From: a virus
Taxonomy: Duplodnaviria > Caudoviricetes
Strand: one strand, 5' to 3'
Virus record (IMG/VR): IMGVR_UViG_3300037479_000622
Location: 1-30,264 of that record
Length of the DNA: 30,264 nucleotides
Both the position numbers and the translations under genes were made by a program. Shown piece by piece: positions 2,010 through 27,194 of the stretch (position 1 is the stretch's first letter; every line of letters begins with the position of its first letter). Below the pieces are notes generated by a model. That model was not told where the DNA came from and did no database searches. It saw only the letters and a list, made by a program, of their open reading frames with translations.

Positions 2010-2828
2010 ATGTCCACGACGATTCCGACCGACAAGTTCCAGTCTCGCGACGAGCTGGTGACGTTCATCGAGGAGCAGGCCGCGACGGCGGTCGAGAAGG
2101 CGGCGCGCGTCGAGCGGCGCGTGCCGTGGGCCACGGCCGGCCCGGTGTGTCAGGACTCGGCCGGTTACTCCGTGCTGAAGGCGGCCGCCTTCGCGCTGGG
2201 TTACGTCGGGCCGGACCAGGCGAAGGAGGAGATTCACGCGCACCAACAGTTGCGCGACCTGTACGCCGGGTACGGGTTCATGCCGCACCACGGGCAGCAG
2301 TCGTTTCTGGTACCGCTGGCCAGCGCCCACCTGCCGGCGTTCGAGCCGCACGGCCGGCGGCTGCGCGACGAGCTGCACCAGAAGATGACCGCGCACGCCG
2401 ACAAGTTCGACCCGGACGAGGCCGACTGGATCGGCCGCCGGCTCAACCCCCGGGCCAAGGCGCTCGGCACGCTCGTCGATACCGCGGGCGGGACGATGGT
2501 GCCGCTGCCGGTCCTGGGCGAACTCATCGACCTGCAGCGGAGCATGGAGGTGTTCGCCTCGGCCGGGGCGCGCGAGGTGGCGCTGCCGCCGAACGGCCGC
2601 ATCCAGTTCCCGAAGCTCACGGCCGCCTCGACCGCGTACTGGGTCGGGGAGGGCAGCCCGATCACCGAGAGCCAGCCGACGACCGGCAACCTCGACCTGC
2701 AGGCCAAGAAGCTCGGCGTGCTGGTGAAGCTGAATTGGCAGGATGATTACTTACGAACTCGACGCGCTCTAGGATGCAGTCCCGATACTTCGCCTTTTGA
2801 ACGGCGCGGTAGTGCAGCACCACCTTAG
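2010..2828 (+). pseudogene. Major capsid protein (HK97 fold), 5' part, interrupted by the prophage at codon 240
   Basis: TAGGTMVP..LGELIDL, FPKLT..STAYWVGEG.PITESQPT.GNLDLQAKKLGVLVK; after 2728 the frame runs into prophage DNA and stops at 2828. Confidence 0.92.
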
Positions 2829-4671
2829 ACAGCAGGGACCGCAGCAGTTCAGCTTTCCGCAGCTTGTTCGATCCCTTCAAGGCGTCTTCCGTCTGCTGAA
2901 GCTGCTTGCGGTAGCCGTGAAGCTTGGCACGCAGTTCCGCTAACTGGTCTTCGAGAGGCACGCACAGACCTTCCCACCGGGCTAGATCGGCTTCGATCCG
3001 TGCAAGCTGGTTGTCGGCGGTATGCAGTTCCCTTTCTGTCCGCGCCCTGCCTTTGGCGAGTAGCCATCCCTCGAACTCCTCTTGCAGCTTTTCCACCTTG
3101 GCGCGGGCAGCCTTCACCTTCTGCTCTTCGTACATGACGAACCAGCGCCGCACCATGTCCACCCCTAGCGGAGTGCCAGCGCCGATCTTCGCCAGTTCAG
3201 CAGCAAGGCGCTTGTCCCGAATGTCACCCTTGACCGTAACCAGCTTCCGGCAGAGTGCCATACCCGCAGCGTCATCGGCAGTGGTGAAGACCTCTTCAAG
3301 ATGAGCGATGTAAGCCCGGATGCCCCGCGAAATGGCTTGGTCTAAGTCAATGCTGCCTAGCGTGCAATCAATCTCGCGGATACGCAGCAGGGCAGAGTCT
3401 TCGGGGCGGTTGTTGATATCCTCTCGCATCTTGCCGACGTGTTCCAAAACCAGGGCTTCCGCCTTTTCATGGCTGATGTAGTTGCGAGTGCAGCCCGTAT
3501 CGTTCTGCGGAGAGCGATCCTGCGAGAAGCGGTAGTAAGACGCACAGATATAGCCCGCCTTGCCGCGAGCGCTGAAGCAGTGCATAGCCCGACCGCACTT
3601 CCCACAGAACAGCAGACCACGCAAGTAGGTATCTTCCCGCCGCAGTGGGGACGGACGTTCCTTCTTTGTCTTTAGCTTCTCTTGCACCAGGGCGAAGACT
3701 TCCGGGTTGATGATGCCTTCATGCACGTTCGGGGTGAGGATGACGGCTTCGCCCTTGTTGGTACGCTGCTTCCTGTCCGGGTTGGTGGTGGGAGAAATCG
3801 CTTTGCCGTTGAAGTGGGCGAACTCCCCTTGTGACGTGCGGTTGTAGCGGATGCTGCCGATGTAGACCGGGTTTGACAGGATGTATTCAACCGTAGTCCG
3901 TGACCATCCCTTGCCGTATCGGTGTTTGCCCTGTTGGTTCAGCTTGATAGCGATACCGCGCGGGCTGATGGCTTGCGTTCGGTACATCTCGAAAATCTGC
4001 TTAACCGTGGCAATCCTTTCCTTAGCCAGTGACAGGACGTAGCGGATAGTATCGGTCCTGTTCTTGCGCGGGGGCTGTTCCCTCTCGACGCGCGACCCGT
4101 CCGGCATCACTACCAGTATCTTCCCGTTGTCCTGATAGTGGACGCGCCAGAGCAGTTCTCCGCTTTCAGTCCGGTATTCCTTGTCGTAGCCGTATGGCGG
4201 AATCTTGCTCTGAGGCTGCCCGCGCTTCGCCCTGTCCACCATCTCCCGTAGGACGTTGGTTCCTAGCTTCTCTTGAAACTCCCTGCTGCCTTCCGCCTTG
4301 ACCAGCGTAGTAACGCCAGTGGCGATATCGGGGCTTGTCAGTTCCGCGCCCGTCGTGACCTCGACTATCCGGCTTCCATGCTCGCGGAAGAGGTAGCAGA
4401 TATGGAACCACTCGAAATGATCCTTCGTGCCGATGCGGTCTTGATGCCAGCAGTAAACCGTTCCGATCTTGCCTTGCTGGACAAGCCGTAGCATGCTCTG
4501 GAAGTCTTCGCGGGTCTTGCTGTGGTGTCTGCTGCCGGTGTCCGTGAACCAGTGGGACGCAGGCGGGAAGGGCAGCCGTCTGTCTGCGAGGTAGTCCCGA
4601 ACTCCCTTTTTCTGGCTTTCCTCTTCCTGCGGGTCACTGCTCTTGCGGATGTAGACGGCATCTTGACGCAT
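2662..4671 (-). CDS. Large serine recombinase (integrase); 3' end crosses attL
   Basis: 669 aa from ATG 4671 with RBS AAGGGGG; resolvase catalytic AVYIRKSS, QDRIG, recombinase domain PPYGY..ILSNPVYIG..HEGII, Zn ribbon LRGLLFCGKCG..YIC, coiled coil. Confidence 0.96.
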   Translation of the reverse strand: MRQDAVYIRKSSDPQEEESQKKGVRDYLADRRLPFPPASHWFTDTGSRHHSKTREDFQSMLRLVQQGKIGTVYCWHQDRIGTKDHFEWFHICYLFREHGSRIVEVTTGAELTSPDIATGVTTLVKAEGSREFQEKLGTNVLREMVDRAKRGQPQSKIPPYGYDKEYRTESGELLWRVHYQDNGKILVVMPDGSRVEREQPPRKNRTDTIRYVLSLAKERIATVKQIFEMYRTQAISPRGIAIKLNQQGKHRYGKGWSRTTVEYILSNPVYIGSIRYNRTSQGEFAHFNGKAISPTTNPDRKQRTNKGEAVILTPNVHEGIINPEVFALVQEKLKTKKERPSPLRREDTYLRGLLFCGKCGRAMHCFSARGKAGYICASYYRFSQDRSPQNDTGCTRNYISHEKAEALVLEHVGKMREDINNRPEDSALLRIREIDCTLGSIDLDQAISRGIRAYIAHLEEVFTTADDAAGMALCRKLVTVKGDIRDKRLAAELAKIGAGTPLGVDMVRRWFVMYEEQKVKAARAKVEKLQEEFEGWLLAKGRARTERELHTADNQLARIEADLARWEGLCVPLEDQLAELRAKLHGYRKQLQQTEDALKGSNKLRKAELLRSLLSKVVLHYRAVQKAKYRDCILERVEFVSNHPANSASPARRASWPAGRGCRSSAGSR
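2711..2752. other. attL: host half gctcggcgtgctggtg + AA (2727-2728) + attP arm gctgaattggcaggatgattactt (2729-2752)
   Basis: Arm 2729-2752 matches the reverse complement of 27171-27194 at 19/24 positions; symmetry centres on the AA dinucleotide, as typical for serine integrase sites. Confidence 0.9.
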
Positions 4672-4744
4672 GGCTATTCCCCCTTGCTTTGCTGTGCTGT
4701 ACGGACCACTTGCTAGCATAGCAACAGCAAAGCAAACAGCAAGC

Positions 4745-4778
4745 AAAAACCCCGCGCCCGGCTGCCCGGTTCGCGGGG
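4745..4778 (-). terminator. Rho-independent terminator upstream of the integrase
   Basis: Minus strand CCCCGCG..CGCGGGG stem followed by TTTTT, after the 61-aa gene. Confidence 0.7.
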
Positions 4779-4824
4779 CTGCTCTCTTGGGTATCGTGAC
4801 TCTCTCGCCATTTCCCCCTAGTTC

Positions 4825-5010
4825 TCATCCGGGGGCTTTTACCTCGACTACCCGCGCCCTGGTCGGACGCAGTTCCTTGACGACCTCGACAGGAACGCCG
4901 ATCCGCCGCAGCATCAGGACTGCCAACCTCTCGGCAAGGCACTTCCCACAGAGGAACGACAGACCGGAGTTAGCGGGCTGTCCGCAGACCCGGCACGCAT
5001 AGGTTTTCAT
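4825..5010 (-). CDS. Small Zn-finger-like hypothetical protein
   Basis: 61 aa, CRVC..CGKC; ATGA overlap with the upstream gene; RBS AAAGGTGG. Confidence 0.65.
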   Translation of the reverse strand: MKTYACRVCGQPANSGLSFLCGKCLAERLAVLMLRRIGVPVEVVKELRPTRARVVEVKAPG

Positions 5011-5399
5011 GCAGCACCACCTTTCCGAAGCCGACTTGCCCCGTCAACCTGAACCGGGATCGGCGGCACGTCCGGCAGCGCCTCGAAATCGTGTTGGTCA
5101 AAGTCGAACATCAGTTCCGCAGGTTCGGTGCGACCCCTCATCTTGCACAGCACGACAGCCCGGACGTTCACCCCGCCATTGTGGGCGAAGTTCCAGTCAT
5201 GCTTGATCCCGGCACGATTCCAGAACTGTAGGTCAGGCGAGTGATACCAGCTTGTCACGCTGATATGGAAGCCGTCCGGGTCTAAATCCCTGTCGAACCG
5301 CGAGTCAGGGACGTGAGAGAAGTTGAGCGCCCGCGACCGCTTCAGCAGCCTGCGAAGATCGTCGGTAGTGAGCAGCTTTTCGAGTCCTGTTGCTTGCAT
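5007..5399 (-). CDS. Hypothetical protein
   Basis: 130 aa; RBS AGGGGAAAAGCC-ATG resembles the integrase RBS; translationally coupled to the next gene. Confidence 0.65.
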   Translation of the reverse strand: MQATGLEKLLTTDDLRRLLKRSRALNFSHVPDSRFDRDLDPDGFHISVTSWYHSPDLQFWNRAGIKHDWNFAHNGGVNVRAVVLCKMRGRTEPAELMFDFDQHDFEALPDVPPIPVQVDGASRLRKGGAA

Positions 5400-6480
5400 G
5401 GCTTTTCCCCTGGTTTGGCGATTGGTTCCCTACCCATATGGGACACTGCGGAAGGTTCGCGTACCGCGCTGCCCCTCACTTCTATTCAAAGCATCGCTTT
5501 TCCCAAACTAAACCAGATTCCGAAAAAACTTGCTCAATATAAGCGCCTTACAAGACCTAGTAGCGAAAAGCCCCTAGCTTCGCTTCTACGGGCTTCAAAC
5601 GAGAAAGGGCAGGACAGTAGGCAGGAAGGGAGAACGTGCCTCTTATGCGATCCTAGAGCCTCAGAAGGGCATTGCTACAGTTACAGTGCTATTGCTATTG
5701 CTATTGCTACAGAAGTGGAAAAAGGCACCAATAGCTTGCGCTGCGCTTAGTAACTTTAGCTGTAAACAAATACCGGGTTTTCCCTATATCAGAAAAACTA
5801 CTAACAATAGCGTTAGCAATAGCTCTGAACAAGGGAAAACCCGTTGTATTGGCTTCTCTGTTTTGGCAGCGCTCTGAGTCAGAGGAACACACCCTTATAG
5901 CAATGAAGCTACCGTCTATGGGTTCAGGACGTTTTACCGGCTTTCTTTTGGATGATCTTTCTGGCTGCGTTTATAAGCCACGCAGCAGGCATGGACCCGG
6001 ACGTTAAACCCCAACCCATGAAAACAACAGCTTTGGTACTTTGTGCTGTTGCTGCTTGCATCAACTAGCAAGCCCGTTGCCGGGTAACAACTTCCCCAAT
6101 GTCGCAGGGAAGAGAAAGCCTTACGCAAAGGATGCTCACCAGGGACCGTATTCCGTTTCCCTGACGCTATCAAGGCGAACGCGGTACGTTGTTGCGTAGT
6201 CGCGCCAGTTATCAGTTGTGGGCTTCCCTTGTTATCGGTATGCCCTCACAGTTGCGACGTGTGACCGTCTCGCAGTTGATGATATAGTAGTCTGCTTCCT
6301 CGCATTTCTCAACTCGGCTTGCGAAATACTTTTTTTGGACGTAAATTGCTTACGCTGTCGAATGTGGGCAGCGGTCTTTGGCGGGTAGTGTAACCAACCC
6401 TGACACTACCCGCCTTCTGCATTTCTCGACTTGCTTTTTACTACCAAAATCGGCGATACTGTGCGGACCACTTAGGAGAA
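5400..6480. other. Long AT-richer non-coding region with many inverted repeats and GCTATT repeats (control region, origin or ncRNA candidate)
   Basis: No convincing ORF; inverted repeats 5774-5785/5832-5843, 5688-5706/5805-5823, 5964-5970/5980-5986, 6054-6059/6068-6073, 6091-6096/6107-6112, 6380-6391/6403-6414. Confidence 0.55.
6380..6414. terminator. Perfect 12-bp stem-loop, terminator-like
   Basis: ggcgggtagtgt-N11-acactacccgcc followed by ttctgcattt. Confidence 0.5.
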
Positions 6481-6486
6481 GCAGCA

Positions 6487-6723: not shown

Positions 6724-6751
6724 AAAACAAAGGCTGCTGCATTCATAGGGC

Positions 6752-7153: not shown

Positions 7154-7175
7154 GACGCAGCAGCATAGATAGGGC

Positions 7176-7547: not shown

Positions 7548-7550
7548 AAC

Positions 7551-7579
7551 TTGCTTTTGTATGGTTGCTGCATTATCCT
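7551..7579 (+). promoter_or_regulatory. Sigma70-like promoter upstream of the HNH endonuclease gene
   Basis: TTGCTT-N17-TATCCT; the same ACTTGCTTTT occurs at 6429-6438 upstream of the 6487 gene. Confidence 0.4.
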
Positions 7580-7603
7580 CTTTCGATCCGAAAGGGGGCA
7601 GCT

Positions 7604-8164
7604 ATGGGACCACGAACAGAAAACATCAAAGGCAAGCGATATGGCAAGCTGGTAGTCAGGGAGTTTGTCGAAGTGCGGGGCGGTATGGCATGGTGGCTTT
7701 GCGATTGCGATTGCGGCAAAACCACAGTAGCACCAACCGGGCGGCTGAACATCGGGCTTACGGCAAGCTGCGGTTGTGGCATGGGCTATAAGACTCACGG
7801 ACTATCCAAGCTGCTTGCCTACAAAAGCTGGAATCAGATGATGCAGCGCTGTTACAACGAGAAGCATATCAGCTACAAGAACTACGGGGCGAGAGGCATC
7901 AAGGTATGCGAGCGCTGGCACGACTTCCCAAGCTTTCTCGCAGACATGGGCGACAGACAGCCGGGTTGGAGCATAGAGAGGCGAGATATCAGCAAGGACT
8001 ATCAGCCTGACAACTGCACTTGGCTGGAAAACTCCAAGCAAGCCCGCAACAAGCGTAATACCATCTTCGTTGCACCAGGGAAGACACTTCAAGACCACTG
8101 CAAAGAGACAGGCGAGAAATACCACACCGCCTACATGCGACGGAAAAGGTTGCTGAACGACTAA
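7604..8164 (+). CDS. Free-standing HNH homing-endonuclease-like protein
   Basis: GKRYGKLVV..WLCDCDCGK..SCGC..SWNQMMQRCYN..YKNYGARGIKVCERW..FLADMG..SIERRD..Y.PDNCTW; start set to ATG 7604 after RBS AAAGGGGG. Confidence 0.88.
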   Translation: MGPRTENIKGKRYGKLVVREFVEVRGGMAWWLCDCDCGKTTVAPTGRLNIGLTASCGCGMGYKTHGLSKLLAYKSWNQMMQRCYNEKHISYKNYGARGIKVCERWHDFPSFLADMGDRQPGWSIERRDISKDYQPDNCTWLENSKQARNKRNTIFVAPGKTLQDHCKETGEKYHTAYMRRKRLLND

Positions 8165-9638: not shown

Positions 9639-9800
9639 ATGTATAAGATTGGCGACGTTGTGAGAGCTAAGGTAGGCGGACCACCGATGACTATTGACCG
9701 CATCGAAGGGCAGGAAGCGCATTGCGTTTGGTTTGACAAGCGAAAGTTGAAGCGCGGCGTATTCCCATTGGTCGCACTGGTTTTGACAGAGGCGGACTAA
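9639..9800 (+). CDS. YodC/DUF2158 family small protein
   Basis: MYKIGDVVRAKVGGPPMTI..AHCVWFD..F...AL; RBS AGGGAG; stop overlaps the terS start. Confidence 0.85.
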   Translation: MYKIGDVVRAKVGGPPMTIDRIEGQEAHCVWFDKRKLKRGVFPLVALVLTEAD

Positions 9801-10147
9801 TGGGACTACGCGGACCACAACCGACACTGAAACTTCGCAGCGAACCGCTTACCGACCTCGCAGCGCCCGAATGGTTGAGCAAAGACGCAGCAGCTTTCTA
9901 CAGCAAGCATGCGAAGCAGCTACAGGAAAACCAGCTTCTTACCGTTCAGACAGCCGACGCATTCGCGCTCGCCTGCGATCTATGGGCAAGGGTTCAGCAA
10001 TTCAAAGGCAAAGAGACAAGCCGCGCGTATCTCGACACTGTGAAAGCCTTCCTGTCCGCAGTGAAGCCCTTCCGCCTAGTGCCGAACGAAAAGCCGCATG
10101 TCAAGGAAGATCGGTTCGCAGACTTCACAGAGGTAGACATTGACTGA
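9800..10147 (+). CDS. terS: Terminase small subunit (P27-like)
   Basis: MGLRGPQP..APEWLSKDA..FY......L....LLT...ADAFALAC..W; upstream of terL. Confidence 0.8.
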   Translation: MGLRGPQPTLKLRSEPLTDLAAPEWLSKDAAAFYSKHAKQLQENQLLTVQTADAFALACDLWARVQQFKGKETSRAYLDTVKAFLSAVKPFRLVPNEKPHVKEDRFADFTEVDID

Positions 10148-10424
10148 GATACCACCAACAGCGCCAAAGCTAGCACTACACAAGCCCGAACCGGCGAGGC
10201 ACCTAACGACCTCGCAGCGCGGCTACGGAACTTCCCATCAGAAGCAAAGACTTCGCGTGATTGCCGAGCAATGCGGAATTTGCTGGCGCTGTCGGCAGGC
10301 ATGGGCAACCGATCTTCACCATAAGGACCACAACCCATTCAATCGCAGCAGGGACAATGTAGAGGCATGGTGTAAGCGCTGTCACGATGAGTACGAAGCG
10401 GCTTACAGAAAGGGCAAGTGTTAG
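10140..10424 (+). CDS. Packaging-associated HNH endonuclease (HK97 gp74-like)
   Basis: RGYG..HQK.R..VI.....C..C....ATDLHH....N....N....CKRCH; overlaps both terS and terL. Confidence 0.85.
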   Translation: MTEIPPTAPKLALHKPEPARHLTTSQRGYGTSHQKQRLRVIAEQCGICWRCRQAWATDLHHKDHNPFNRSRDNVEAWCKRCHDEYEAAYRKGKC

Positions 10425-11989
10425 TTCGGCATAAGAGCGACGAAGCCTTTCTTGACCAGGGCGGCAAATGGGATGAGGAAGCCGGACAGAAAGTAATCCG
10501 GTTCTTTGAAAGCTACCTCTGCCTTGAAGACGGAAGACCCTTCAAAGTCCTGCCCTGGATGCGGGACGTAATCCGGTCTTGGTATTGTTGGCTGACACCG
10601 GAGAACCAGAGGCGTACCCGAATCGGCTTGCTGACGTGTGGGCGCAAGAACGCCAAAAGCATCCTCACTTACGGCTTGACTGCATACCACTTGGTAGCCG
10701 ATGGCGTCCAGTCCCCTAGCTGTGCAAGCTGTGCTGTCAACCGAGAGCAGGCGGCACAGATATTCGATTGGTTCAAGTTTGCGATAGACAACAACCCGAA
10801 GCTGTCCAAAGCACTGCACGCGATCCCAAGCAAGAAAACCATTCTGTACCCTGCGAAGAATGGGAAGTACCGAAGCCTAGCAAGCGATACGCAAGGCGGT
10901 AACTTCGGGCACGGCTTTACCTTTCTGGTGCATGACGAGCTAGCTTTTCACAAGCGGGATGACCTCTATACCACGTTGAAGAACAGCACCGACGCAAGAC
11001 GCGGGTTGCAGGTAATCACGTCAACAGCCGGTTGGAACAAGAACGGGGCATTTTACAAGCTGGTGCAGTATAGCCGCAAAGTGCTGTCCGGCGAGATCAT
11101 CGACCCGACCTTTCAGCCCTGGCTATTCGAGATTCCCGAAGGGGCGGACGTTGAAGACGAAAACAACTGGCGTCTTGCTAATCCGTCAATTGGCGTGTGC
11201 CAGTCCGCAGAGGATTTCCGCAGCCAGTGGGAGCGCGAGAAGCGGGACGCAACAACCAGACTCGCATTTACCCGGCTGAAATTCAACCAGTGGACTGACG
11301 CGGAAAACGCTTGGATTCCGGTTGAGTCTTGGGACGATTGCAAGTCAAACGTCAACCTCGACGGTATCCCGGTTGTGTGTGGCGTTGATGTTGGTGCAAC
11401 CAGAGACTTAACCGCTATCACCCTGGTTGGCGTCCTGCCTGACAAGCAGTTTGCCGTCAAGACTTGGGGCTTTGTGCCAGAGGGCGCGTTCAACACCCGC
11501 GACCACTGCAACCACCTTCAGTATCAAGCGTTCGCCAAAGCCGGAAGCCTGATAGTCACCCCTGGCACCGCTACCGATGAACAGCAGCTAATTGGCTTCC
11601 TTGATGACCTCCGCGAGCGTTACAGCATCGTCGGCGTAGTCTTTGACAAGTGGCAGTCCTTGACCATCAGCAACCACTGTATGCGGCAAGGGCTTCTGAC
11701 TTACAACTTCCCGCAGACGCATTCCTATTTCAACGCGCCTTGCATCGAACTGGAAAGACTGGTCAACAACCGGAAGATAGCTCACGATGGCTGCCCGTTG
11801 CTGCGCTGGCAGATCGGACACACCTACCTAGACCGGGACCACAAGGGCTATGTCAAGCCTGTTACCGCACGTCCTGAGAACAAAAAGGACAACTTGATAG
11901 CCCTGCTGATGGCGTTGTCTATCGCGCTGCAAGTGTCACCATCCAGCAAACCAAGCATCTACCAAGACCGAGGCTTAGTAATTCTGTGA
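10418..11989 (+). CDS. terL: Terminase large subunit (HK97-like)
   Basis: 523 aa; Walker A CGRKNAKS, NREQA..IF, Walker B VHDELAF, ITSTAG, NWRLANPSIG, nuclease GVDVGATRDLTA, K.DNLIALLMA. Confidence 0.96.
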   Translation: MLVRHKSDEAFLDQGGKWDEEAGQKVIRFFESYLCLEDGRPFKVLPWMRDVIRSWYCWLTPENQRRTRIGLLTCGRKNAKSILTYGLTAYHLVADGVQSPSCASCAVNREQAAQIFDWFKFAIDNNPKLSKALHAIPSKKTILYPAKNGKYRSLASDTQGGNFGHGFTFLVHDELAFHKRDDLYTTLKNSTDARRGLQVITSTAGWNKNGAFYKLVQYSRKVLSGEIIDPTFQPWLFEIPEGADVEDENNWRLANPSIGVCQSAEDFRSQWEREKRDATTRLAFTRLKFNQWTDAENAWIPVESWDDCKSNVNLDGIPVVCGVDVGATRDLTAITLVGVLPDKQFAVKTWGFVPEGAFNTRDHCNHLQYQAFAKAGSLIVTPGTATDEQQLIGFLDDLRERYSIVGVVFDKWQSLTISNHCMRQGLLTYNFPQTHSYFNAPCIELERLVNNRKIAHDGCPLLRWQIGHTYLDRDHKGYVKPVTARPENKKDNLIALLMALSIALQVSPSSKPSIYQDRGLVIL

Positions 11990-11997
11990 GCAGGGCA

Positions 11998-12005
11998 CCT
12001 ACATA
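11998..12005 (+). promoter_or_regulatory. Putative late promoter CCTACATA, 5 nt before the portal ATG (leaderless)
   Basis: cctacata-cctgc-ATG, no SD between motif and start. Confidence 0.65.
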
Positions 12006-12010
12006 CCTGC

Positions 12011-13273
12011 ATGAAGTTACTAAGCTGGTTGTTCCCTCGCAAGCAAGAGAGCAGAGGGATTACAAGAGACATCGGGGTAAGCTACGGGCTGATTAACAAC
12101 ACTGGCACTAGCCTTGAAAGCGCCCTTGCGCTCTCGGCTGTTTGGTGTTGCGTCCGCGTGCTTGCGGAAGGCGTTGCCTCTCTCCCTTGCATCACATACA
12201 AGCGGCTACCGAGGGGCGGCAAAGAACGCGCTGCCGAGCATCCAAACTACCGGCTGCTTCGCACTGAACCCAACCCGGAAAGCACCGCCTACCAGTTTTG
12301 GGAGACTTTGATATTTCACTGGTCCCTCTACGGCAATGCATTCGCCGAAGTGGTCAGGGATGGAAGCGGCAGACCGATTGCCCTGTATCCCCTCGACAGC
12401 CGTTACATGCAGGTTGACCGGGACCAGGGCGGCAAGCTGGTCTATGTCTACCGCGACGGCAAGGGCGAAGCGGTCTTGAAGCCGGAAGACGTGTTGCACG
12501 TTGCGGGACTGTCGGCAGACGGATCGGTTGGCTACAGCCTGCTTCGCACTGCACGGAACGCGCTGAAGCTTACCGAAGCCACGGAAGAGTTTGGCAGAAG
12601 CTTCTTTGGTAACTGTAGCCGACCATCCGGGCTGCTCAAAACTGAAGGCGTGTTGAGCGATCAGGCGCGGGAGAATCTTCGCCGATCTTGGGAAGCACTT
12701 CACAGCAGCAGCAGCAACACCGGGAAAGTAGCGATCTTGGAAGAGGGGTTAGACTTCTCGCCGATCCAGCTAACGAACGAAGAGGGGCAGTACAAGGAAA
12801 CCCGTCAGTTTCAAATCTTGGAAGTCTGCCGGTTGTTCAACGTCCCCCCGCACCGCGTTCGCGCCCTCGACCGCGCCACTTGGGGAAACATCGAAGCCGA
12901 AAACATCAGCTTCGTAACGGACACGCTGCGCCCGATCTTGGTGCGCTTTGAACAGGAAGTAAACCGCAAGCTATTCCTGCCCTCAGAGCAAGACACCTAC
13001 TTTGCTGAATGGCTTGTAGATTCGCTGCTGCGAGGGGACACCGCAAGCCGGTTCAACGTCTACGCTGTCGCACTGCAAAGCAAAATCCTGTCCGTGAACG
13101 AGTGCCGAGAGATGGAAAACAGGAACCCCATCGAAGACCCCGAATTTGATAAGCCCGGCATTCCACCAGGGCAGCAGCCGGAAGCCGATCCCGCCGACGA
13201 AGGCACCGAGGGGGAGCAGCTTCCCGACGAAGACCAGGGCGACGAAGAGCAGCCCGGAGAGGAAGAGGAATGA
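12011..13273 (+). CDS. Phage portal protein, HK97 family
   Basis: 420 aa; SAVWCCVRVLAEGVASLP, EPNP..TAYQFWE, LYGNAFA, ILEEGLDF, EVCRLFNVPP, LLRGDTASR, SVNECREMEN; acidic C-terminal tail. Confidence 0.96.
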   Translation: MKLLSWLFPRKQESRGITRDIGVSYGLINNTGTSLESALALSAVWCCVRVLAEGVASLPCITYKRLPRGGKERAAEHPNYRLLRTEPNPESTAYQFWETLIFHWSLYGNAFAEVVRDGSGRPIALYPLDSRYMQVDRDQGGKLVYVYRDGKGEAVLKPEDVLHVAGLSADGSVGYSLLRTARNALKLTEATEEFGRSFFGNCSRPSGLLKTEGVLSDQARENLRRSWEALHSSSSNTGKVAILEEGLDFSPIQLTNEEGQYKETRQFQILEVCRLFNVPPHRVRALDRATWGNIEAENISFVTDTLRPILVRFEQEVNRKLFLPSEQDTYFAEWLVDSLLRGDTASRFNVYAVALQSKILSVNECREMENRNPIEDPEFDKPGIPPGQQPEADPADEGTEGEQLPDEDQGDEEQPGEEEE

Positions 13274-13797
13274 CCATCGAACAACGCAGCTTCGCAACCA
13301 GCTTCAGCACCGAGGAAGGCAAGCGGCTTGTCGGCTACGCAGCCGTTTGGGACACGCCTACCACGATCCGCGAAGCCGGACGCACCTTCACCGAGGTTAT
13401 CCGCAGAGGGGCATTCCGCAAGGCGATTGACTCCAAAGGGGACATTATCGCCACGTTCAACCACGATCCCAACCGCCTGCTTGGGCGCACGGCAAGCGGT
13501 ACGCTGTCCCTCGCAGAAGATGACCACGGCTTGCGGTTCATGTTGGAACTACCGGACACACCAACCGGGGCGGAAGTCCGCGCCCTGGTGCAAAGAGGCG
13601 ACTTGAACGGGGCATCCTTCAGCTTCGCGCCCCGCAAGGATGGGAACCGATGGCAGGGAAGCCAACGCGAACTAGTAGACCTGTTCCTTTTTGAACTCGG
13701 TCCCGTTGCGTTGCCAGCGTACAAAGCTACCTCTCTAGCACTTCGTAGCAACCTCGACTTGTGCAAGTTGAAGCTGACACTTGCTGAGAAAATATAA
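13270..13797 (+). CDS. HK97 prohead protease
   Basis: 175 aa; LVGYAAVW, FTEVIRRGAF, FNHD..LLGRT.SGTL.L.ED..GLRF, GASFSF, LFELGPV.LPAY; ATGA overlap with portal. Confidence 0.95.
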   Translation: MTIEQRSFATSFSTEEGKRLVGYAAVWDTPTTIREAGRTFTEVIRRGAFRKAIDSKGDIIATFNHDPNRLLGRTASGTLSLAEDDHGLRFMLELPDTPTGAEVRALVQRGDLNGASFSFAPRKDGNRWQGSQRELVDLFLFELGPVALPAYKATSLALRSNLDLCKLKLTLAEKI

Positions 13798-13806
13798 GGG
13801 CACGCG

Positions 13807-13846
13807 CCTACATACCTCCAGAGTTTCAATTAAAGACCTCTGGAGG
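13807..13846 (+). promoter_or_regulatory. Late promoter CCTACATA plus anti-SD hairpin over the capsid RBS
   Basis: cctccagag (13815-13823) pairs with ctctggagg (13838-13846), which contains the SD GGAGG. Confidence 0.7.
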
Positions 13847-13849
13847 GAT

Positions 13850-15109
13850 ATGAAAAGTGTTGAACTACGCGAGACACGCGCCAAGATTGTAGCAGACTCT
13901 CGCAAGCTGATTAACACTGCTGAAGCTGAGAACCGCGACCTTACCGCAGAGGAGCGTCAGCAGTTTGAAAGCATGATGGCTGACGTTGATTCGCTGGCTG
14001 TCGAGATTGAAAAGAGCGAACGTAAGGAAAAGGTTGAACTGCTTGAAGCCGAGCAGCGCAGCATTCAGCCCCGCAAGACAAACCCATCTCTTCCGCCTCA
14101 GACCGCAGACGAGTACCGCGCAGCCTTGCGTAACTGGTGCCTGTTGGGGACCGGCAAGGAAGACAGTTCCGCCGACATGCAATTCCGCATGGCTAACCAC
14201 GGCTTCACTAACGCAAGCCTTGTTTACGTCCGTGCGCTGTCGAAAGGCACGGCAACCGCTGGCGGTCACACCGTTCCGCTTGGCTTCGTCAACGAGCTAG
14301 AGAAAAAGCTGAAGTGGTATGCACCGATCCGCAACGTAGTCCGTGTCATCAAGACCGAGACGGGGCAAGACCTCGACTACCCGCGCGTTGACGACACCGC
14401 GAACAACGCTGGTATCGTTGCTGAAGCTGGTACGCTCATCAACAGCCCTGACCCGACATTCGACAAGATCACCTTCAAGGCTTACAAGTACAGCAGCCCG
14501 ATTATCAAGGTTTCCGCTGAGTTGCTGGCTGACAGTGCTTTCGACATCGAAGCCGAGCTAGCAGACCTCTTGACGCAGCGTATTGCACGCGGTCAGGAAG
14601 CCCACTTCGTAGCAGGCGACAACAGCAGCAAGCCGCAAGGTTTGACCACTGGTGCGACCTCTGGCGCACAGCTTGCGGGCGGCAACGCCTTCACTGGCGA
14701 CAAGTTGATTGACCTCTTCCACAGCGTTGACATTGCCTACCGGCAGAACGGCGCTTGGCTGATGCACGATCTTACTTTGGCTGCGATCCGCAAGGTAAAG
14801 GACACGACAAACCAATACCTTTGGCAGCCGGGCTTGACTGCTGGCGCACCGGACACCTTGCTTGGCAAGCCGGTTTATGTGTCCAACAGCTTCGCCGAGT
14901 ACGCGGGCAGCGAAGGCACCAACAAGCCTCTTGTCCTGTTCGGCGACTTCAACAAGTACGTTGTCCGTGACGTTACGGGCGCAGTCACCTTGCAGCGCTT
15001 GAACGAGTTGTACGCGGCAACCAACGAAATCGGCTTCGTCCTGCATACGCGGGCTGACGGTCGCTACGCCGGTCACTCTGGTTGCGTGAAGTCTTTGAAT
15101 AGCGCGTGA
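13850..15109 (+). CDS. Major capsid protein, HK97 family
   Basis: 419 aa from ATG 13850; N-terminal coiled-coil delta domain, TAGGHTVP, KVSAELLADSAFDIE, KPQGL, QYLWQPGLTAGAPDTLLGKPVY, FGDFNKY. Confidence 0.96.
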   Translation: MKSVELRETRAKIVADSRKLINTAEAENRDLTAEERQQFESMMADVDSLAVEIEKSERKEKVELLEAEQRSIQPRKTNPSLPPQTADEYRAALRNWCLLGTGKEDSSADMQFRMANHGFTNASLVYVRALSKGTATAGGHTVPLGFVNELEKKLKWYAPIRNVVRVIKTETGQDLDYPRVDDTANNAGIVAEAGTLINSPDPTFDKITFKAYKYSSPIIKVSAELLADSAFDIEAELADLLTQRIARGQEAHFVAGDNSSKPQGLTTGATSGAQLAGGNAFTGDKLIDLFHSVDIAYRQNGAWLMHDLTLAAIRKVKDTTNQYLWQPGLTAGAPDTLLGKPVYVSNSFAEYAGSEGTNKPLVLFGDFNKYVVRDVTGAVTLQRLNELYAATNEIGFVLHTRADGRYAGHSGCVKSLNSA

Positions 15110-15145
15110 TGAGTAGTTCTTGCCTTTCTCCTGTGGGCAAGGTTC

Positions 15146-15183
15146 ACCCCCGGCAGCTTGTCAGTTGTCCGGGGGTTTTCTTT
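15146..15183 (+). terminator. Rho-independent terminator after the capsid gene
   Basis: acccccgg..ccgggggt stem followed by tttcttt; first 12 nt (acccccggcagc) identical to the hairpin at 27083. Confidence 0.8.
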
Positions 15184-15204
15184 GCGCCCTTACTACGTTA
15201 AGGG

Positions 15205-15708
15205 ATGCCATACAAAAACCCCATTGACAGACGCAACAACTATCGCAAGTGGCGAGCAAAGAACCGCGACTATCACAAGCAATGGTTACTAGCTCACCCT
15301 GGTTATCAGCAGAAGTACAACGACCGCTATAAGGACAAGCCGAGAAAGCGAAAGCGCGGCAAGTCTAGCCCGGAAGCCCTCGCAAGGCAGGGGAAGCGAC
15401 GATACCGCAAGCGCCGCGACTTCGTAAACGCAGTCAAGGAAATGTACGGCTGCCAGAATCCCGCCTGTTGCTGGCAAGGCTACGTTCCCGCCTGTTGCCT
15501 CGACTTTCACCACCTAGACCGATCCGCAAAGCAATTCAACATAGGGGCAGCCCTCAGAGGCAAGGGAAGGCTTGCGAAGGAAATCAACCGTTGCACTGTC
15601 CTTTGTGCTATCTGCCATCGGCTCGAAACATGGGGGAAGCTAGACGCTAGCACGTTTCCGCGATGCGACATAGACGATACGGGAAAACGGCGCGACACCG
15701 CTAAATAG
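15205..15708 (+). CDS. Free-standing HNH endonuclease
   Basis: 167 aa; basic N-terminus, then GC...C....CLDFHHLD...K.FNI....EI.RCTVLCAICHR. Confidence 0.85.
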   Translation: MPYKNPIDRRNNYRKWRAKNRDYHKQWLLAHPGYQQKYNDRYKDKPRKRKRGKSSPEALARQGKRRYRKRRDFVNAVKEMYGCQNPACCWQGYVPACCLDFHHLDRSAKQFNIGAALRGKGRLAKEINRCTVLCAICHRLETWGKLDASTFPRCDIDDTGKRRDTAK

Positions 15709-15711
15709 GGC

Positions 15712-16293
15712 ATGTACACCGTTCAAGTAATCACACCGCCTGCGAGCGAACCAGTAACAACGCAGGAACTAAAAGACCATCTCCGGTTGAATGACAGCAG
15801 CGAAGACAGCTTGCTAGCGGGCTTCATCAAAACAGCACGCTTGCAATTCGAGCTAAACACCGGGGTAGCCGTCCTGCCCACTGTCTTCCGTCAGCACTTC
15901 TACGCGATTGCTGGTCCGATCTACCTCTATCGCGGGAACGTCTCGGCTATTGGAAGTGTCATGTACTGGAACACGGCGGGCAACTTTGTTAGTGACAGCA
16001 CCTACCTTAGCGACCTCATCAGCAACCCGGCTAAAGTCTGGTGGCAGGTTTACCCGGTCACGCATAGCGACAAGTCACCGAAAGGCTATGTCGAGTTTAC
16101 AGCAGGTTGGGCGAATGCAGCAGCAGTGCCGGAAGACGTAAAAACCTGCATCAAGCTGCTTGCTGCTCACTACTACGCACACCGCGAAGCCTACACCGAA
16201 GACACTGACCTAAGAAACCTGCCTCTCGGCTTCCAAAGCGTTTGCAGGGCTTACAAGACGGGGCTTGTTGGTGAGTTGGGGGTAGCACTATGA
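15712..16293 (+). CDS. Head-tail connector (gp6-like)
   Basis: ITPPASEPVTTQELKDHLR..EDSLL..FI.TAR..E....VEFTAGW....VPEDVKTCIKLLAAHYYAHREA; GCTAAATA 4 nt before the ATG. Confidence 0.92.
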   Translation: MYTVQVITPPASEPVTTQELKDHLRLNDSSEDSLLAGFIKTARLQFELNTGVAVLPTVFRQHFYAIAGPIYLYRGNVSAIGSVMYWNTAGNFVSDSTYLSDLISNPAKVWWQVYPVTHSDKSPKGYVEFTAGWANAAAVPEDVKTCIKLLAAHYYAHREAYTEDTDLRNLPLGFQSVCRAYKTGLVGELGVAL

Positions 16294-16628
16294 GCGCAGC
16301 AGGACGATACGCAGACCGCATGAAATGGCTGAAGGCAACCCGGCTACCGAACACGCTAGGGCAGCCCGAAGAGTCTTTTGCACTCAATGGCTACCTCTGG
16401 TGCCAAGTGGAGAGCAACCAGGGCAGGAAGCAGGAAGACTACGGCGCAGAGCGGACGGGCATTACCGCCACGATCCGCATTCGCAACTACCCGGAAATCA
16501 CCGCCCTGGATCGGCTCGAATCGGTCGAATGGGGCGACTTGTGGGTTATCGAGAGCATCGGCAGAGGGGACAACGAATTGATAGCAGACTGCTACCTCTT
16601 CGATGAAGACCTAGAAGGGATAGCGTGA
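16290..16628 (+). CDS. Head closure / head-tail adaptor (SPP1 gp16-like)
   Basis: 112 aa; AGRY.DR..W....N.LG......WC.V....G.....G........I.IR....I...DR; gene position. Confidence 0.8.
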   Translation: MSAAGRYADRMKWLKATRLPNTLGQPEESFALNGYLWCQVESNQGRKQEDYGAERTGITATIRIRNYPEITALDRLESVEWGDLWVIESIGRGDNELIADCYLFDEDLEGIA

Positions 16629-17080
16629 GTAGCGTTAAGTGGGAAATAGACCCTATCAAGCAGGCTAACAAACTGAAAAAAGGAACGCGGAACAAAGCCC
16701 TGCGTATCGCGGTCAACCGTTCCGCCTCTCCGGTCAAGGCTGCTGTAGCTGGCAACGCACCGAGGCGACACGGCTACCTTTCCAAGTCTATCCGTATCCG
16801 TGTCCGCAACTACAAGGGCAACGACGTTTGGCTAGCGGTAATCGGTCCTTCTAGCAAGTTCCGCAAAGCCAAAGGCAAACGCAAGCGCGGACCAAACAAG
16901 GGACAGCCGATCTACCACAACCCAAGCAAATACGCACACCTAGTTGAGAGAGGCACCAAGCGTAGCAAGGCAAGCCCTTTCTTGAAGCCTGCTTTGCAAT
17001 CGCACCAGAACACTTACCGGCAATCGCTAACCGAGAACATCCGCCGCGAAGTTGATGCCATGCTAGCCAAAGGAAATTGA
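16625..17080 (+). CDS. HK97 gp10-family neck/tail completion protein
   Basis: 151 aa basic; KALR.A......VK......AP...G.L.KSI, YAHLVE.GT....A.PFLKPAL. Confidence 0.9.
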   Translation: MSSVKWEIDPIKQANKLKKGTRNKALRIAVNRSASPVKAAVAGNAPRRHGYLSKSIRIRVRNYKGNDVWLAVIGPSSKFRKAKGKRKRGPNKGQPIYHNPSKYAHLVERGTKRSKASPFLKPALQSHQNTYRQSLTENIRREVDAMLAKGN

Positions 17081-17090
17081 ACCGCACCAG

Positions 17091-17128
17091 CATACATACC
17101 CACAGCAAGTAACTAACAAGCTGTGAGG
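17091..17128 (+). promoter_or_regulatory. Late promoter CATACATA plus hairpin over the tail-tube RBS
   Basis: cc-cacagc (17099-17106) pairs with gctgtg-a-gg (17120-17128), overlapping the SD GAGG. Confidence 0.6.
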
Positions 17129-17132
17129 AAGT

Positions 17133-17552
17133 ATGGCTGTAATCGGTTTGACCTCGAAAGTAGAGATTGACACCAACGGTTCCGGTAGCTGGTCTACCAT
17201 TAGCGAAGCGACGATGATTAACGTGCCGAGCTATGAAGTCTCGGTAGTTGACGCATCCCACCTAGCGGTTTCCAGTGCTAACAAGCTGTTTATTCCGGGT
17301 ATGAAGGATGCTGGCGTCTTGTCCTTTGAATGCAATTACACAAAGGCTACGTTGCAGTTGCTCAACACTCACCGGGGCATCATGCGAAACTGGCGCGTCA
17401 CGTTTGTAGATGACGATGGCACCGGACCAAACACGCAACTTGTAATGACTTTTGAAGGCTTCATCACCAAGACCGAAACCGCCCTCGAAATGGAAAACGT
17501 CGTTCGCATCAAGACAGACGTGAAGGTTTCTGGTGGCGTGACACTAGCTTAA
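17133..17552 (+). CDS. Major tail (tube) protein
   Basis: 139 aa; I..PS.....VD.SH......K.FIPG.KDAG.LSF..NY, FEGFIT, VKVSG; position before the chaperone and tape measure genes. Confidence 0.88.
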   Translation: MAVIGLTSKVEIDTNGSGSWSTISEATMINVPSYEVSVVDASHLAVSSANKLFIPGMKDAGVLSFECNYTKATLQLLNTHRGIMRNWRVTFVDDDGTGPNTQLVMTFEGFITKTETALEMENVVRIKTDVKVSGGVTLA

Positions 17553-17556
17553 TGTT

Positions 17557-17889
17557 ATGAGTAGAGAAATCATCCTTAGCCGAAAGCATGTAACGGTAAA
17601 GCCTGTCACCACAGAGCAGGGAACCGTCTACGTTCGCAGCCTATCCAATGCACAGCTTCGCAAGATAGCGGCACTGGAACAGGAAGCGAAGACCGAAGCC
17701 GACAAGACGCTAGCGGTACTACCCTGGTTGATCGTTTACGGCTGCTGTGACTCGCAAGGCAATCCGGTCTTTTCCGAGGCAGACATTCCGGCGATTGATG
17801 ACCTTCCCCCCGATTACCTCGCAACACTAGCGGCGGAAGTCTCAAAGCTGGTGAACGGTACGAAGCTGGAAGACGCTAAAAAAAACTAG
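17557..17889 (+). CDS. Tail assembly chaperone (gpG-like)
   Basis: 110 aa; GTVYVRSLS, GCCDSQGNPVF, ends AKKN on a slippery A-run. Confidence 0.85.
   Translation: MSREIILSRKHVTVKPVTTEQGTVYVRSLSNAQLRKIAALEQEAKTEADKTLAVLPWLIVYGCCDSQGNPVFSEADIPAIDDLPPDYLATLAAEVSKLVNGTKLEDAKKN
17878..17886 (+). other. Programmed -1 frameshift site (A AAA AAC) giving the gpGT-like fusion
   Basis: Eight A residues then C; the -1 frame is open (KKLETDSDLHFCMRL...) into ORF 17916-18185. Confidence 0.85.
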
Positions 17890-17915
17890 AGACTGACTCC
17901 GATTTACATTTCTGC

Positions 17916-18185
17916 ATGCGCCTAGCGGCTAATCTTGGGATGACGCTAGGCGATATCCTCGACCTGACACAAGACGAAATCACCTACTGGAAAGCTTACG
18001 AACTGACCTACGGGCTTCCGTTCACCCGCCTTGAATGGTCCATCGCAATCGGATCAACAGCAACCGCTAACAGCATGGGCGCGAAGCTGAAGGCGTCTGA
18101 CCTCATCCCGCGCATCGAACAGCCCATCACAGACGTAGCAACCGCACGCGCGTTCCTCGCATCTCGTTTCGGAATTGCTGACTAG
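17916..18185 (+). CDS. Tail assembly chaperone C-terminal (T) segment, expressed via frameshift
   Basis: LA..LGMT..........E...W.AY pattern, in the -1 frame relative to gpG, directly before the tape measure gene. Confidence 0.8.
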   Translation: MRLAANLGMTLGDILDLTQDEITYWKAYELTYGLPFTRLEWSIAIGSTATANSMGAKLKASDLIPRIEQPITDVATARAFLASRFGIAD

Positions 18186-18205
18186 CAGCCCTACATAGCT
18201 TTACT

Positions 18206-19669
18206 ATGGCGGGATCAATCGGAAAAGCAGCACTCATCCTGACGGCTGATGCAAGCAAGCTACACAGCGGACTAGACAAAGCGGGCAGTGAAGCCAAGTC
18301 AAAGGTTGGCAGCATTGCATCTAGCTTGAAGGGCGGTTTTGTTGCGGGCTTGGGTATCGCAGCAGCGCAAGGCGTTGTTGATATCGTCCAGTCCATCGCG
18401 GGCAAGTTCGGCGAGCTATCCGGCAAGATCGACGGGGCGAGCAAGGCGGCACGCAGCTTAGGTACCGATACCGCTACCTTCATGGGTTGGCAACACGCAG
18501 CCGACCTCTCCGGGGTATCCGTTGAACAACTCGAAACAGCGCTAGGCAAGTTCCGCCAGTCAGTCAGCGGACCTATGGATGAGGCGCTATACGCTTTCGC
18601 GGACAAGCTGCAAGGCGTCAGCGATCCGGGCGAACGCGCGAAGATGGCGGTTGAGGCGTTCGGCAAAGCTGGCGTCAAAATGCTGCCCATGCTGGAAGGC
18701 GGATCGGCGGGCATCAAGGACATGGTTGAGGAAGCCAAGCGCCTTGGCATTGCCCTGGATGACGTACAAGGGCAGAAGATCGAAGCCGCTAACGATGCCA
18801 TCACCAGGGTAAAGGCTAGTATTGCTGGCGTTATCAACCGTGTCCTAGTGGCAATGGCACCAGTGGTTGAGAAGCTAGGCGCGGCAATCGTCAACGTCAT
18901 GACAAAGCTAGCGCCCCTCTTTGACTTCCTCGCAGAAGCACTATCGACCTATTGGGAAGTGATGATTGCCTTTTGGGGCGAAGTCTTCAACGCCATTTGG
19001 GAAGTAATCAAGTCGGTAGGCGAGTTCATCTCGGAAATCTTCAACCTCAGTGGCGTTACTCTGACAGCGCGTGACGTAGTGCTAGGCGTGCTGAAGGCTA
19101 TTGGCATCGGCTTCGCCTACGTTTGGGACACCATCAAAGTAGGGGCGGGAGTCATTGCCTACGTTGCCAGCTTCCTAGTTGAAGGCTTCGGCAAAGTGGT
19201 GAAGATGCTGCGTCACGTCTTCGAGCTAGCAAAGGAATTGCCTGATGCCGTCCGCCCTAGCTGGCTGGACAAAGCAATTGATGGCGTGATCGAGTTTGAC
19301 AAGAAGACGGAAGAGACAGCAAAGAAGATGCGTTCATGGGGCGAGGGGACATGGAAGAACTTCGGCAAGAGCGCTGATGACGTGCGGAAGTGGTTCCAGC
19401 AATTCGACAAGGAAAAGGACAAGCCGAAGCCGAAGGGGGCAGCAGCAGCGCCCGCCGAAGAAAAGAAGATGGAATACAAAGCGGTTCAGGCAATGGTGCA
19501 AGGCAGCCGCGAGGCAATCAGCGTTGAAGCCCGGTTCCGCACGCAGCAAATCATTGACAAAGACAAGCTAGCCAAAGAGCAGCTTAACGAAGCCAAAAAA
19601 GCCAACGAAGAGCTAAAGAAGATTGCTGCTGCCGTTGCTGGCGGGGCTATCGTGTTTGGGGCGTTCTAA
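18206..19669 (+). CDS. Tape measure protein
   Basis: 487 aa, Ala/Gly/Lys-rich helical; IGKAALILTADASKL..GL, AVEAFGKAG..MLPML.GG; CCTACATA at 18190. Confidence 0.9.
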   Translation: MAGSIGKAALILTADASKLHSGLDKAGSEAKSKVGSIASSLKGGFVAGLGIAAAQGVVDIVQSIAGKFGELSGKIDGASKAARSLGTDTATFMGWQHAADLSGVSVEQLETALGKFRQSVSGPMDEALYAFADKLQGVSDPGERAKMAVEAFGKAGVKMLPMLEGGSAGIKDMVEEAKRLGIALDDVQGQKIEAANDAITRVKASIAGVINRVLVAMAPVVEKLGAAIVNVMTKLAPLFDFLAEALSTYWEVMIAFWGEVFNAIWEVIKSVGEFISEIFNLSGVTLTARDVVLGVLKAIGIGFAYVWDTIKVGAGVIAYVASFLVEGFGKVVKMLRHVFELAKELPDAVRPSWLDKAIDGVIEFDKKTEETAKKMRSWGEGTWKNFGKSADDVRKWFQQFDKEKDKPKPKGAAAAPAEEKKMEYKAVQAMVQGSREAISVEARFRTQQIIDKDKLAKEQLNEAKKANEELKKIAAAVAGGAIVFGAF

Positions 19670-21446: not shown

Positions 21447-21455
21447 AGGGGAAGC

Positions 21456-22093: not shown

Positions 22094-22094
22094 A

Positions 22095-23753: not shown

Positions 23754-23785
23754 AAGGAAGCCTGCCGGGTAGTTGAAGAAGGAGA

Positions 23786-24100: not shown

Positions 24101-24102
24101 AG

Positions 24103-26263: not shown

Positions 26264-26488
26264 GCGGGTAGCACAGTGTCCGGCTTGTGGTGAACCCTCG
26301 ACCCGTATTCGCTTCTTCATCGGCTGTTGCCCTGGTCCGGCTTGTGCCATTTTACGGACGCGCCGCGCCTCTGGCTGCTGCCGAGAGGACTGTACCAAAC
26401 CGCCCGCCCATTTTGCTAGCGCGGATGCTGTCCCTTTGGTATACTTCCCTGGTCCGTACCTTCACCAAGCCAAGACCAGGGGAACAGC

Positions 26489-26848
26489 ATGGCAAAGAAA
26501 CCCGAACGGGGCGAAAAGGCGCGGTGGATTCGGGAAGCGCTGGTAGCGAATCCCGACTTGGGACCGACCGAGCTAGCCGAGATGCTCAACAAGAAAGCGG
26601 CGGATGCGGAAGTCAAGCTTACCTTCAAGCCGGTAGAGATCAGCGCCGCGAAGAGCCGAGAGGCAAAGAAGCAGCAGGACGGCGGGGGCGGGGGCAGGAA
26701 GGGACGGACCAGGGCGGCAGCAGGATCGGCGGCAGCCTCGACAGCAGCAACAGCAGCCGGGGCGGGGGAAGCAGTGGTCAAGCTGATGGAAGCCGCAAAA
26801 GCACTCGGCAAGGAAGAGGCAAAGAAGATTCTTGACCTGATGGGCTGA
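26489..26848 (+). CDS. Small basic Lys/Ala-rich putative DNA-binding protein
   Basis: 119 aa; KARWIREAL.ANP.LGPTELAEML HTH-like segment, G/A linker, C-terminal helices; RBS AGGGG. Confidence 0.75.
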   Translation: MAKKPERGEKARWIREALVANPDLGPTELAEMLNKKAADAEVKLTFKPVEISAAKSREAKKQQDGGGGGRKGRTRAAAGSAAASTAATAAGAGEAVVKLMEAAKALGKEEAKKILDLMG

Positions 26849-26860
26849 ACAGGGGGAACC

Positions 26861-27076
26861 ATGCCCGGAAAAACCCGCTACCTGTCCCGAATGCCAAAGA
26901 CCGTACCAGAGGGGCGAATCGTCGTTCACAGCATCGTGAAGCCCACCCATCCCGAACAAGCGCCGGGGGTAAACGGCTTCCGTTGCTGGACGCAGCAGCC
27001 GGACGATACCGTAACCATCTGCCGTTGCGGATGGGCACCGCACCTACCGCAGCACTACAAGCCGAAACCGCAGTAA
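26861..27076 (+). CDS. Small hypothetical protein
   Basis: 71 aa; RBS AGGGGG; H, C.CGW and H residues; followed by a hairpin. Confidence 0.65.
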   Translation: MPGKTRYLSRMPKTVPEGRIVVHSIVKPTHPEQAPGVNGFRCWTQQPDDTVTICRCGWAPHLPQHYKPKPQ

Positions 27077-27082
27077 ACGAAG

Positions 27083-27118
27083 ACCCCCGGCAGCGCTATC
27101 AAGCCGTCTGCCGGGGGT
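27083..27118. terminator. Probable bidirectional terminator
   Basis: acccccggcag / ctgccgggggt 11-bp stem between the + strand 71-aa gene stop and the attP-form integrase stop (27127-27129, minus strand). Confidence 0.7.
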
Positions 27119-27126
27119 TGTTGCAC

Positions 27127-27194
27127 CTACGCAGACAGCAGATTTGCCAGCATTTCCAGCAGTTCCGGCAAAGTAATCTTCTCGCCAGTTAAGC
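27127..27194 (-). other. Alternative 3' end of the integrase gene (joined only in the excised attP form)
   Basis: After circularisation the integrase frame reads ..NSA-CLTGEKITLPELLEMLANLLSA-TAG. Confidence 0.75.

Follow-up and report, generated by a model that had tools for sequence, protein, structure and literature searches.

Attachment (att) sites lying inside the integrase gene itself have been described for the myxophages Mx8 and Mx9 (PMC6070905), the rumA serine integrases (PMC4701971), DsiB (PMC3146451) and SSV (PMC5861418); here and below, statements on published systems refer to the accessible portions of the papers cited. In the Streptococcus rumA integrative and conjugative elements (ICEs), a serine integrase with att in the 3’ end of its gene targets a protein gene and has a state-dependent C-terminus, a functional difference between the forms being proposed only (PMC4701971). 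DsiB of Dehalococcoides always overlaps the left junction (attL) and ends in a variable tail, an antisense read-through of host DNA, the circle having been suggested to encode the full form (PMC3146451). Both of these papers, each on serine integrase genes with an att site inside them, guessed at differing forms and, in their accessible portions, report no test (PMC4701971, PMC3146451). In the temperate phages Mx8 and Mx9, the phage site (attP) lies in int, and on integration the C-terminus is exchanged and activity is lowered or altered (PMC6070905, PMC4701971), the prophage form of the Mx8 integrase being less active (PMC4701971). Here we analyse IMGVR_UViG_3300037479_000622, a single virus record of 30,264 bases (the window), in which a prophage encodes a large serine integrase whose gene contains attP and whose C-terminal tail differs between the integrated and the free form. 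A preliminary description of this DNA took as its precedent mycobacteriophages with attP in the repressor gene; published systems with attP inside the integrase gene itself are closer (PMC6070905, PMC4701971, PMC5861418, PMC3146451).

The prophage, an insert of 24,468 bp (~55% GC) between 2727 and 27196, interrupts a resident capsid gene at codon 240 (Table 1). Joining the ends at an offset of 24,468 gives an intact 457-aa capsid ORF (open reading frame); at an offset of 24,467 the capsid frame is shifted. The integrase ORF runs across attL into capsid DNA, which it reads antisense up to a stop at 2662-2664. In the prophage the enzyme thereby carries 21 further residues, in place of which the circle would add 22 phage-coded residues up to a TAG at 27127-27129; this swap, proposed in the preliminary description, exists on paper in both forms. 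Any crossover within 2722-2737 at the 24,468 offset keeps the frame and gives a circular integrase one residue longer with the same phage-coded tail, which disposes of the concern that the true crossover might change the reading frame; nor do homologues end before the att site. With the crossover at the AA dinucleotide (2727-2728 and 27195-27196), attP is symmetric (8-mer, 13 nt, AA, 13 nt, inverse 8-mer), and two related elements, G001 and G051, share this geometry but differ in inner sequence. The crossover is therefore best placed at this AA on sequence grounds. The other word common to both junctions, TGAA (2731-2734), would as crossover alter one residue only, and host codon use speaks slightly in its favour (AAG CTG in 6 of 29 intact genes, AAG TTG in 1 of 29). 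A crossover 9 nt earlier in G001 was considered and dropped, since the symmetric motif puts it at the same AA.

With its three domains (Resolvase, Recombinase and Zn-ribbon by Pfam), short att sites, 2-bp crossover and symmetric attP, the enzyme belongs with the large serine recombinases. Its AlphaFold model (7-row alignment, mean pLDDT, the predicted local distance difference test, of 70) has long helices at residues 401-613, a last strand at 631-641 and no structure over residues 644-669, so that the swap falls ~7 residues beyond the last predicted strand. Domain order, fold, short symmetric attP, 2-bp centre and outer motifs are shared with the integrases of SPbeta, phiC31, Bxb1 and LI (PMC11722253), and a relative of the window’s enzyme, P0007, matches solved serine integrases (best Foldseek E 2e-17). 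Those four systems differ from the present one in that their integrase is the same enzyme in both states; direction there is set by a separate recombination directionality factor (RDF). In SPbeta, direction is decided by a short RDF helix packed on DBD2 (PMC11722253).

The window and nine further elements share the arrangement in which the integrase ORF spans the crossover and its ends differ by state, and each described counterpart departs from it in some respect. The rumA elements are ICEs and not tailed phages, and their integrase gene and the rumA 3’ end are reciprocally exchanged, while here the genes lie antiparallel; the accessible text mentions no conserved tail helix or helix-turn-helix (HTH) region (PMC4701971). 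DsiB targets ssrA/tmRNA, is a CcrB-like enzyme accompanied by a second recombinase, and its free-form tail is not analysed in the accessible text (PMC3146451). The Mx8 and Mx9 enzymes are tyrosine integrases in which 13 residues take the place of 112, whereas here 21 take the place of 22 (PMC6070905, PMC4701971). The archaeal SSV integrases, which likewise have att inside the gene, are of the tyrosine family and the gene is interrupted (PMC5861418), whereas the present enzyme is of the serine family and retains all its domains and its whole folded core.

Free-form tails were reconstructed for ten elements (window, G001, G051, L084, G057, G117, G190, G197, G372 and G236), whose targets are the capsid site, a second capsid site ~10 nt away (G236, exact dinucleotide unsure), nfo (TIGR00587) and a gene which, from its motifs, we take to be comM. 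All ten tails contain 4-8 hydrophobic residues in positions 8-17, and the integrase frame is the best of six in nine of them (single shuffle p 0.003-0.16; two tails entered the shuffle test one codon late). The stretch lies mostly beyond the att arm, the residue before it being partly fixed by the att 8-mer. Tail length ranges from 18 to 80 residues and the end is variable. Four tails (G057, G117, G190 and G236; 71-80 aa) continue into an HTH-like region, so the hydrophobic stretch is not always terminal; the three of these that were scanned gave weak PF13384 matches (E 0.004-0.05, below cut-off), and G190 was assigned by eye only. A helix-like tail also occurs in 20 of 141 database proteins of the family, their state, free or integrated, being read from the protein sequence (the 141 are those of 150 with a tail of at least 7 residues; 10 distant proteins and those shorter than 430 aa were dropped). 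In a tree of 44 rows (at most 38 database proteins plus 8 loci), those helix-tailed proteins that it includes fall among read-through forms, the pattern that two states of a single gene should give. The amphipathic, helix-like character first noticed in the window has a counterpart in its relatives, in which a hydrophobic, predicted-helical stretch is conserved; the ..LLSA end, to which the preliminary description also drew attention, is not conserved in close relatives. To judge from these comparisons, the free-form tail looks like a selected, conserved hydrophobic stretch that is predicted to be helical.

A blind search for symmetric att sites in 14 elements was noisy: only G057 was paired directly, G117 and G190 were paired via the host gene, and 11 of the 14 were left unpaired. 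For an element in the terminase gene (G082) no firm attL/attR pair was obtained, the capsid element of G167 is degenerate, and for G175 the second half of the capsid gene was not found. At several right junctions (attR) there are orphan helix-plus-HTH frames (L105:4506-4748, L111:5776-5991, L070:601-816 and L136), which would be fused to the integrase only after excision. A sister clade (L007, L008 and L010) ends in the antisense 3’ end of what is presumably a vWA-like gene, and the sequence around that site resembles the capsid attB, which suggests, at the sequence level, a target shift between the two; a search for attR at the vWA-like target found none.

The prophage-form tail behaves quite differently. 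Read antisense from the same AA, intact host capsid genes give 21 residues in 21 of 24 cases and an immediate stop in the other 3 (30 loci were examined, of which 24 fitted the pattern), and we therefore judge from the sequences that the prophage tail is accidental and set by host codons. At the capsid site, prophage-form tails range from 0 to 27 residues, G051 being a zero-tail case. Across 150 proteins of the family, conservation reaches no further than the last strand (aa 639); what follows is in most of them a variable read-through tail. P0002, a closest homologue at 55% identity, ends in a sense +1 read-through of the second half of the capsid gene from the same dinucleotide, and its element is thus inserted the opposite way round at the same place; P0003, also a closest homologue at 55%, is probably inserted the opposite way too, the orientation of both being read from the protein sequence alone.

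We propose that the tail helix is a protein-contact element that would bias the free form in favour of integration or against excision, a reading to which we assign a probability of about 0.42. It starts from the att geometry, the two tails, a swap just past the folded core, an accidental prophage tail and a hydrophobic stretch at four target sites. We rank it first on the grounds that the helix, unlike its end, is retained and is in some cases followed by a further domain. The integrase of the free phage would end in a hydrophobic, phage-coded tail with a predicted helix, and that of the prophage in a disordered read-through in its place. The stretch would fold as a tethered helix and contact the integrase itself or its directionality factor, possibly blocking or mimicking the contact that the RDF helix makes on DBD2, by analogy with SPbeta. 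Loss of the helix would leave the prophage form less active, as reported for Mx8, or dependent on an excision factor, and the enzyme would thereby record its own integration state.

Several points weigh against this proposal. It is built on sequence and predicted structure, and the tails share a hydrophobic pattern and little sequence. The window’s tail by itself is borderline (p 0.04-0.09: shuffle p 0.04, or 0.086 with the measure used for database tails), and the combined shuffle p of 2e-7 for the ten tails (7e-7 without the window) is overstated, the positions tested having been picked after looking and the elements being related. Five tail pairs were each joined on one contig (window, G057, G117, G236 and G372); four of the ten (G001, G051, G190 and G197) lie on two separate contigs of one assembly, L084 offers attR only, and no pair was obtained for 16 or more other elements. 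AlphaFold does draw a helix in the tail of P0007 (685-695), which speaks for the proposal, but with a pLDDT below 50 and no confident packing, though few alignment rows have a true tail. A prediction pairing the tail peptide with integrase residues 335-645 scored 0.02, which has no bearing either way.

The main alternative is that the free-form tail is a degradation tag: a short-lived phage form would limit lysogeny or re-integration, and integration would stabilise the enzyme. Such tags are found on the repressor and the integrase of mycobacteriophage BPs (PMC4557955), where, as here, a C-terminal piece whose coding sequence spans attP is lost on integration; attP lies there in the repressor gene, while the gene crossed here is the integrase gene, and the BPs tag, with its two-alanine end, was shown to drive proteolysis (PMC4557955, PMC9934374). 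The preliminary description had suspected a degron in the window’s tail, and the idea finds some support in the database proteins: Ala is the last residue in 9 of the 20 helix-like tails and in 8 of the remaining 121 (Fisher p 5e-5; with a base rate of 12%, p 2.5e-4), a post hoc comparison of proteins whose state is read from their sequence. This enrichment suits a degron better than a contact helix and counts further against the protein-contact proposal; the window itself ends in SA and G197 in RA, and the tail is predicted to be flexibly tethered. The Ala end is not conserved, however, being present in just two of the ten reconstructed tails and in none of the three closest same-site relatives; in four of the ten the stretch is internal, with ~50 further residues behind it, and the window lacks the two-alanine end of described tags (PMC9934374). 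We regard a degron as possible but doubtful. Unlikely, in our estimate, is the neutral reading, in which the overlap is a by-product of having attP beside the integrase gene, the tail merely gives a stop codon and both forms are alike. It would fit a swap outside the predicted folded core, prophage tails of such different length at one site and the spread in length of the free-form tails, and McMurdie et al. list the trivial reading for DsiB (PMC3146451); an in-frame hydrophobic run in ten of ten tails at four target sites, together with HTH-like extensions, is not what unselected DNA would be expected to give.

The same conservation would suit a tail required for full activity. The prophage form would then be mostly inactive and the prophage trapped in place until, on a rare occasion, excision makes the gene whole again, a positive feedback as in SSV1. 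Att sites of the SSV type interrupt the integrase gene (PMC5861418), and DsiB was suggested to be fully functional only on the circle (PMC3146451). Yet the prophage form here, unlike a split gene, retains the three Pfam domains and the last strand, and the predicted fold does not include the tail, which makes this reading quite improbable to us. We give least credence to a transcriptional role, in which loss of a terminator on integration would produce an antisense RNA silencing the resident capsid cluster, and hold it to be highly improbable. The 11-bp hairpin on which it depends (Table 1) is present as first described, 8 nt behind the free-form stop, and nothing comparable folds behind the prophage-form stop (z 0.0). 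It starts, however, 7 nt past the stop of ORF 26861-27076 and is equally placed for that convergent ORF, lacks a proper U tract, and a terminator scan made no call (0 found). None of six relatives tested has a counterpart with z below -2 (approximate shuffle), so the terminator swap put forward in the preliminary description is not supported as a conserved trait. The antisense role suggested there fares no better as a selected trait, P0002 and probably P0003 reading the capsid gene in the sense direction; the capsid gene is, moreover, already split. No sigma-70-like promoter was found near either prophage end.

A wider claim, that widespread Planctomycete serine integrases have a built-in state switch in which excision fuses a helix (in some, with an HTH DNA-binding domain) to the enzyme and integration removes it, direction being set by gene rearrangement instead of or atop a separate factor, is one that we advance as speculation and rate as rather doubtful. 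If the helix sets direction or turnover, it would be a second control of serine integrases besides RDFs. Most database copies carry read-through tails (121 of 141 without a helix-like tail), so integrases mined from genomes for engineering would often be cloned without their native end. The layout itself is known; what appears new, as far as the sequences go, is that Planctomycete integrases targeting protein genes share, across the family, a detachable helix, to which some members add an HTH. In a literature search, outside which most subscription papers lay, neither a conserved helix nor an HTH on the free form was described for this integrase family. Such integrases often target a magnesium chelatase-like gene (PMC10083194), and the att-site tables of that paper might hold members of this family.

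Among candidates for an RDF, ORFs near both prophage ends have no Pfam or PHROGs family, and 5007-5399 and 26489-26848 gave no named match. The latter ORF, near attR and 119 aa long, falls in a protein family that has no name and comes mostly from Planctomycetota (feature score 0.93). No close relative was found in GenBank phages (52 records, all below 60%, best rows 20-25%), and none of the integrase by protein patterns in viral contigs, where DNA patterns gave three matches, of which only L084 is real.

Table 1 Features of the window discussed in the text, with positions, strand and supporting evidence
Feature	Position	Strand	Evidence
Resident capsid gene, codons 1-239	2010..2726	+	Pfam Phage_capsid profile 1-84; in-frame join to right piece
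Prophage-form tail, 21 codons and stop, antisense read-through of capsid gene	2662..2727	-	No predicted structure, pLDDT <50
Large serine integrase, 669 aa from ATG, 648 aa common to both forms	2662..4671	-	PF00239, PF07508 and PF13408 above cut-off
attL central dinucleotide AA, inferred crossover	2727..2728		AAG common to both junctions at offset 24,468; attP symmetry here, in G001 and in G051
P’ arm of attP, 13-nt spacer and outer 8-mer (2742-2749), coding integrase residues directly after the last strand	2729..2749		Inverse of 8-mer 27174-27181; kept in G001, G051 and G175
Prophage packaging, head and tail genes: terminase, portal, protease, capsid, connectors, tail tube, chaperone, tape measure	9800..19669	+	Pfam, PHROGs
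Last phage ORF, convergent on hairpin	26861..27076	+	No Pfam or PHROGs family
GC-rich 11-bp hairpin between convergent stops, possible two-way terminator	27083..27118		z -2.9 minus strand, -3.2 plus strand
Free-form tail, 22 codons and TAG, hydrophobic, amphipathic	27127..27195	-	Positions 8-17 hold 5 hydrophobic residues; the five other frames give 1-3
P arm of attP (outer 8-mer 27174-27181) and attR central AA (27195-27196)	27174..27196		Same spacing in G001, G051 and L084
Resident capsid gene, second half	27197..27851	+	Pfam Phage_capsid profile 84-277

The prophage has its own terminase, portal, protease, capsid and tail genes, and a C5 methylase. The flanks of the window (~68% GC) hold a phage-like head cluster of portal, protease, capsid, head-tail connector and terminase genes. 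The split capsid gene has matches in 97 of the 252 genomes of the family of G001 (Gemmataceae), at 67-95% identity save one and nearly always in single copy, and two integrase homologues (43-44% identity) are labelled Gemmataceae; because of these homologue names and capsid matches, the host of the prophage is probably a member of the Gemmataceae, as judged from sequence. In the contigs of two DNA sequencing runs, attL is bridged and no joint is listed at it, and the depth of prophage contigs is not above that of the flanks; no free circle was seen there, though one may be present, attR being without cover. No RNA run was among those listed as containing this DNA.

The resident head cluster (window 1-2726 and 27197-30264; L037-L066) behaves as a conserved host locus and may be a domesticated system resembling a gene transfer agent. 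A literature search found no account of it, a Zavarzinella prophage being merely listed in one paper. The cluster is an insertion hotspot (L001/L005, L014/L067, L015, L076, L084, L070, L081, L013 and L023), with sites at capsid codon 240 (several elements), at a second capsid site ~10 nt off (G236, probably G243), at the capsid 3’ end (G160) and in the terminase gene (G082). Splitting of the capsid gene could turn the resident cluster off until excision. The G001 element at the same site (L001, L078-L080) has, in the stretches fetched, none of 20 tested prophage proteins in common with the window; thus, one integrase clade and site are used by different elements.

The host flanks also contain intergenic 7-mer-like repeats and palindromes (1264-1313, 1955-1996, 27859-27950, 29074-29164 and 30134-30245), and those near 1200-1600 are high-copy in both sequencing runs. 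Within the prophage, there are three HNH endonuclease-like genes (7565-8164, 10140-10424 and 15205-15708), imperfect Ser-rich repeats at 21117-21290 within ORF 20646-21446, and an AT-rich region with short tandem and inverted repeats at 5684-5843, a possible origin or control region.

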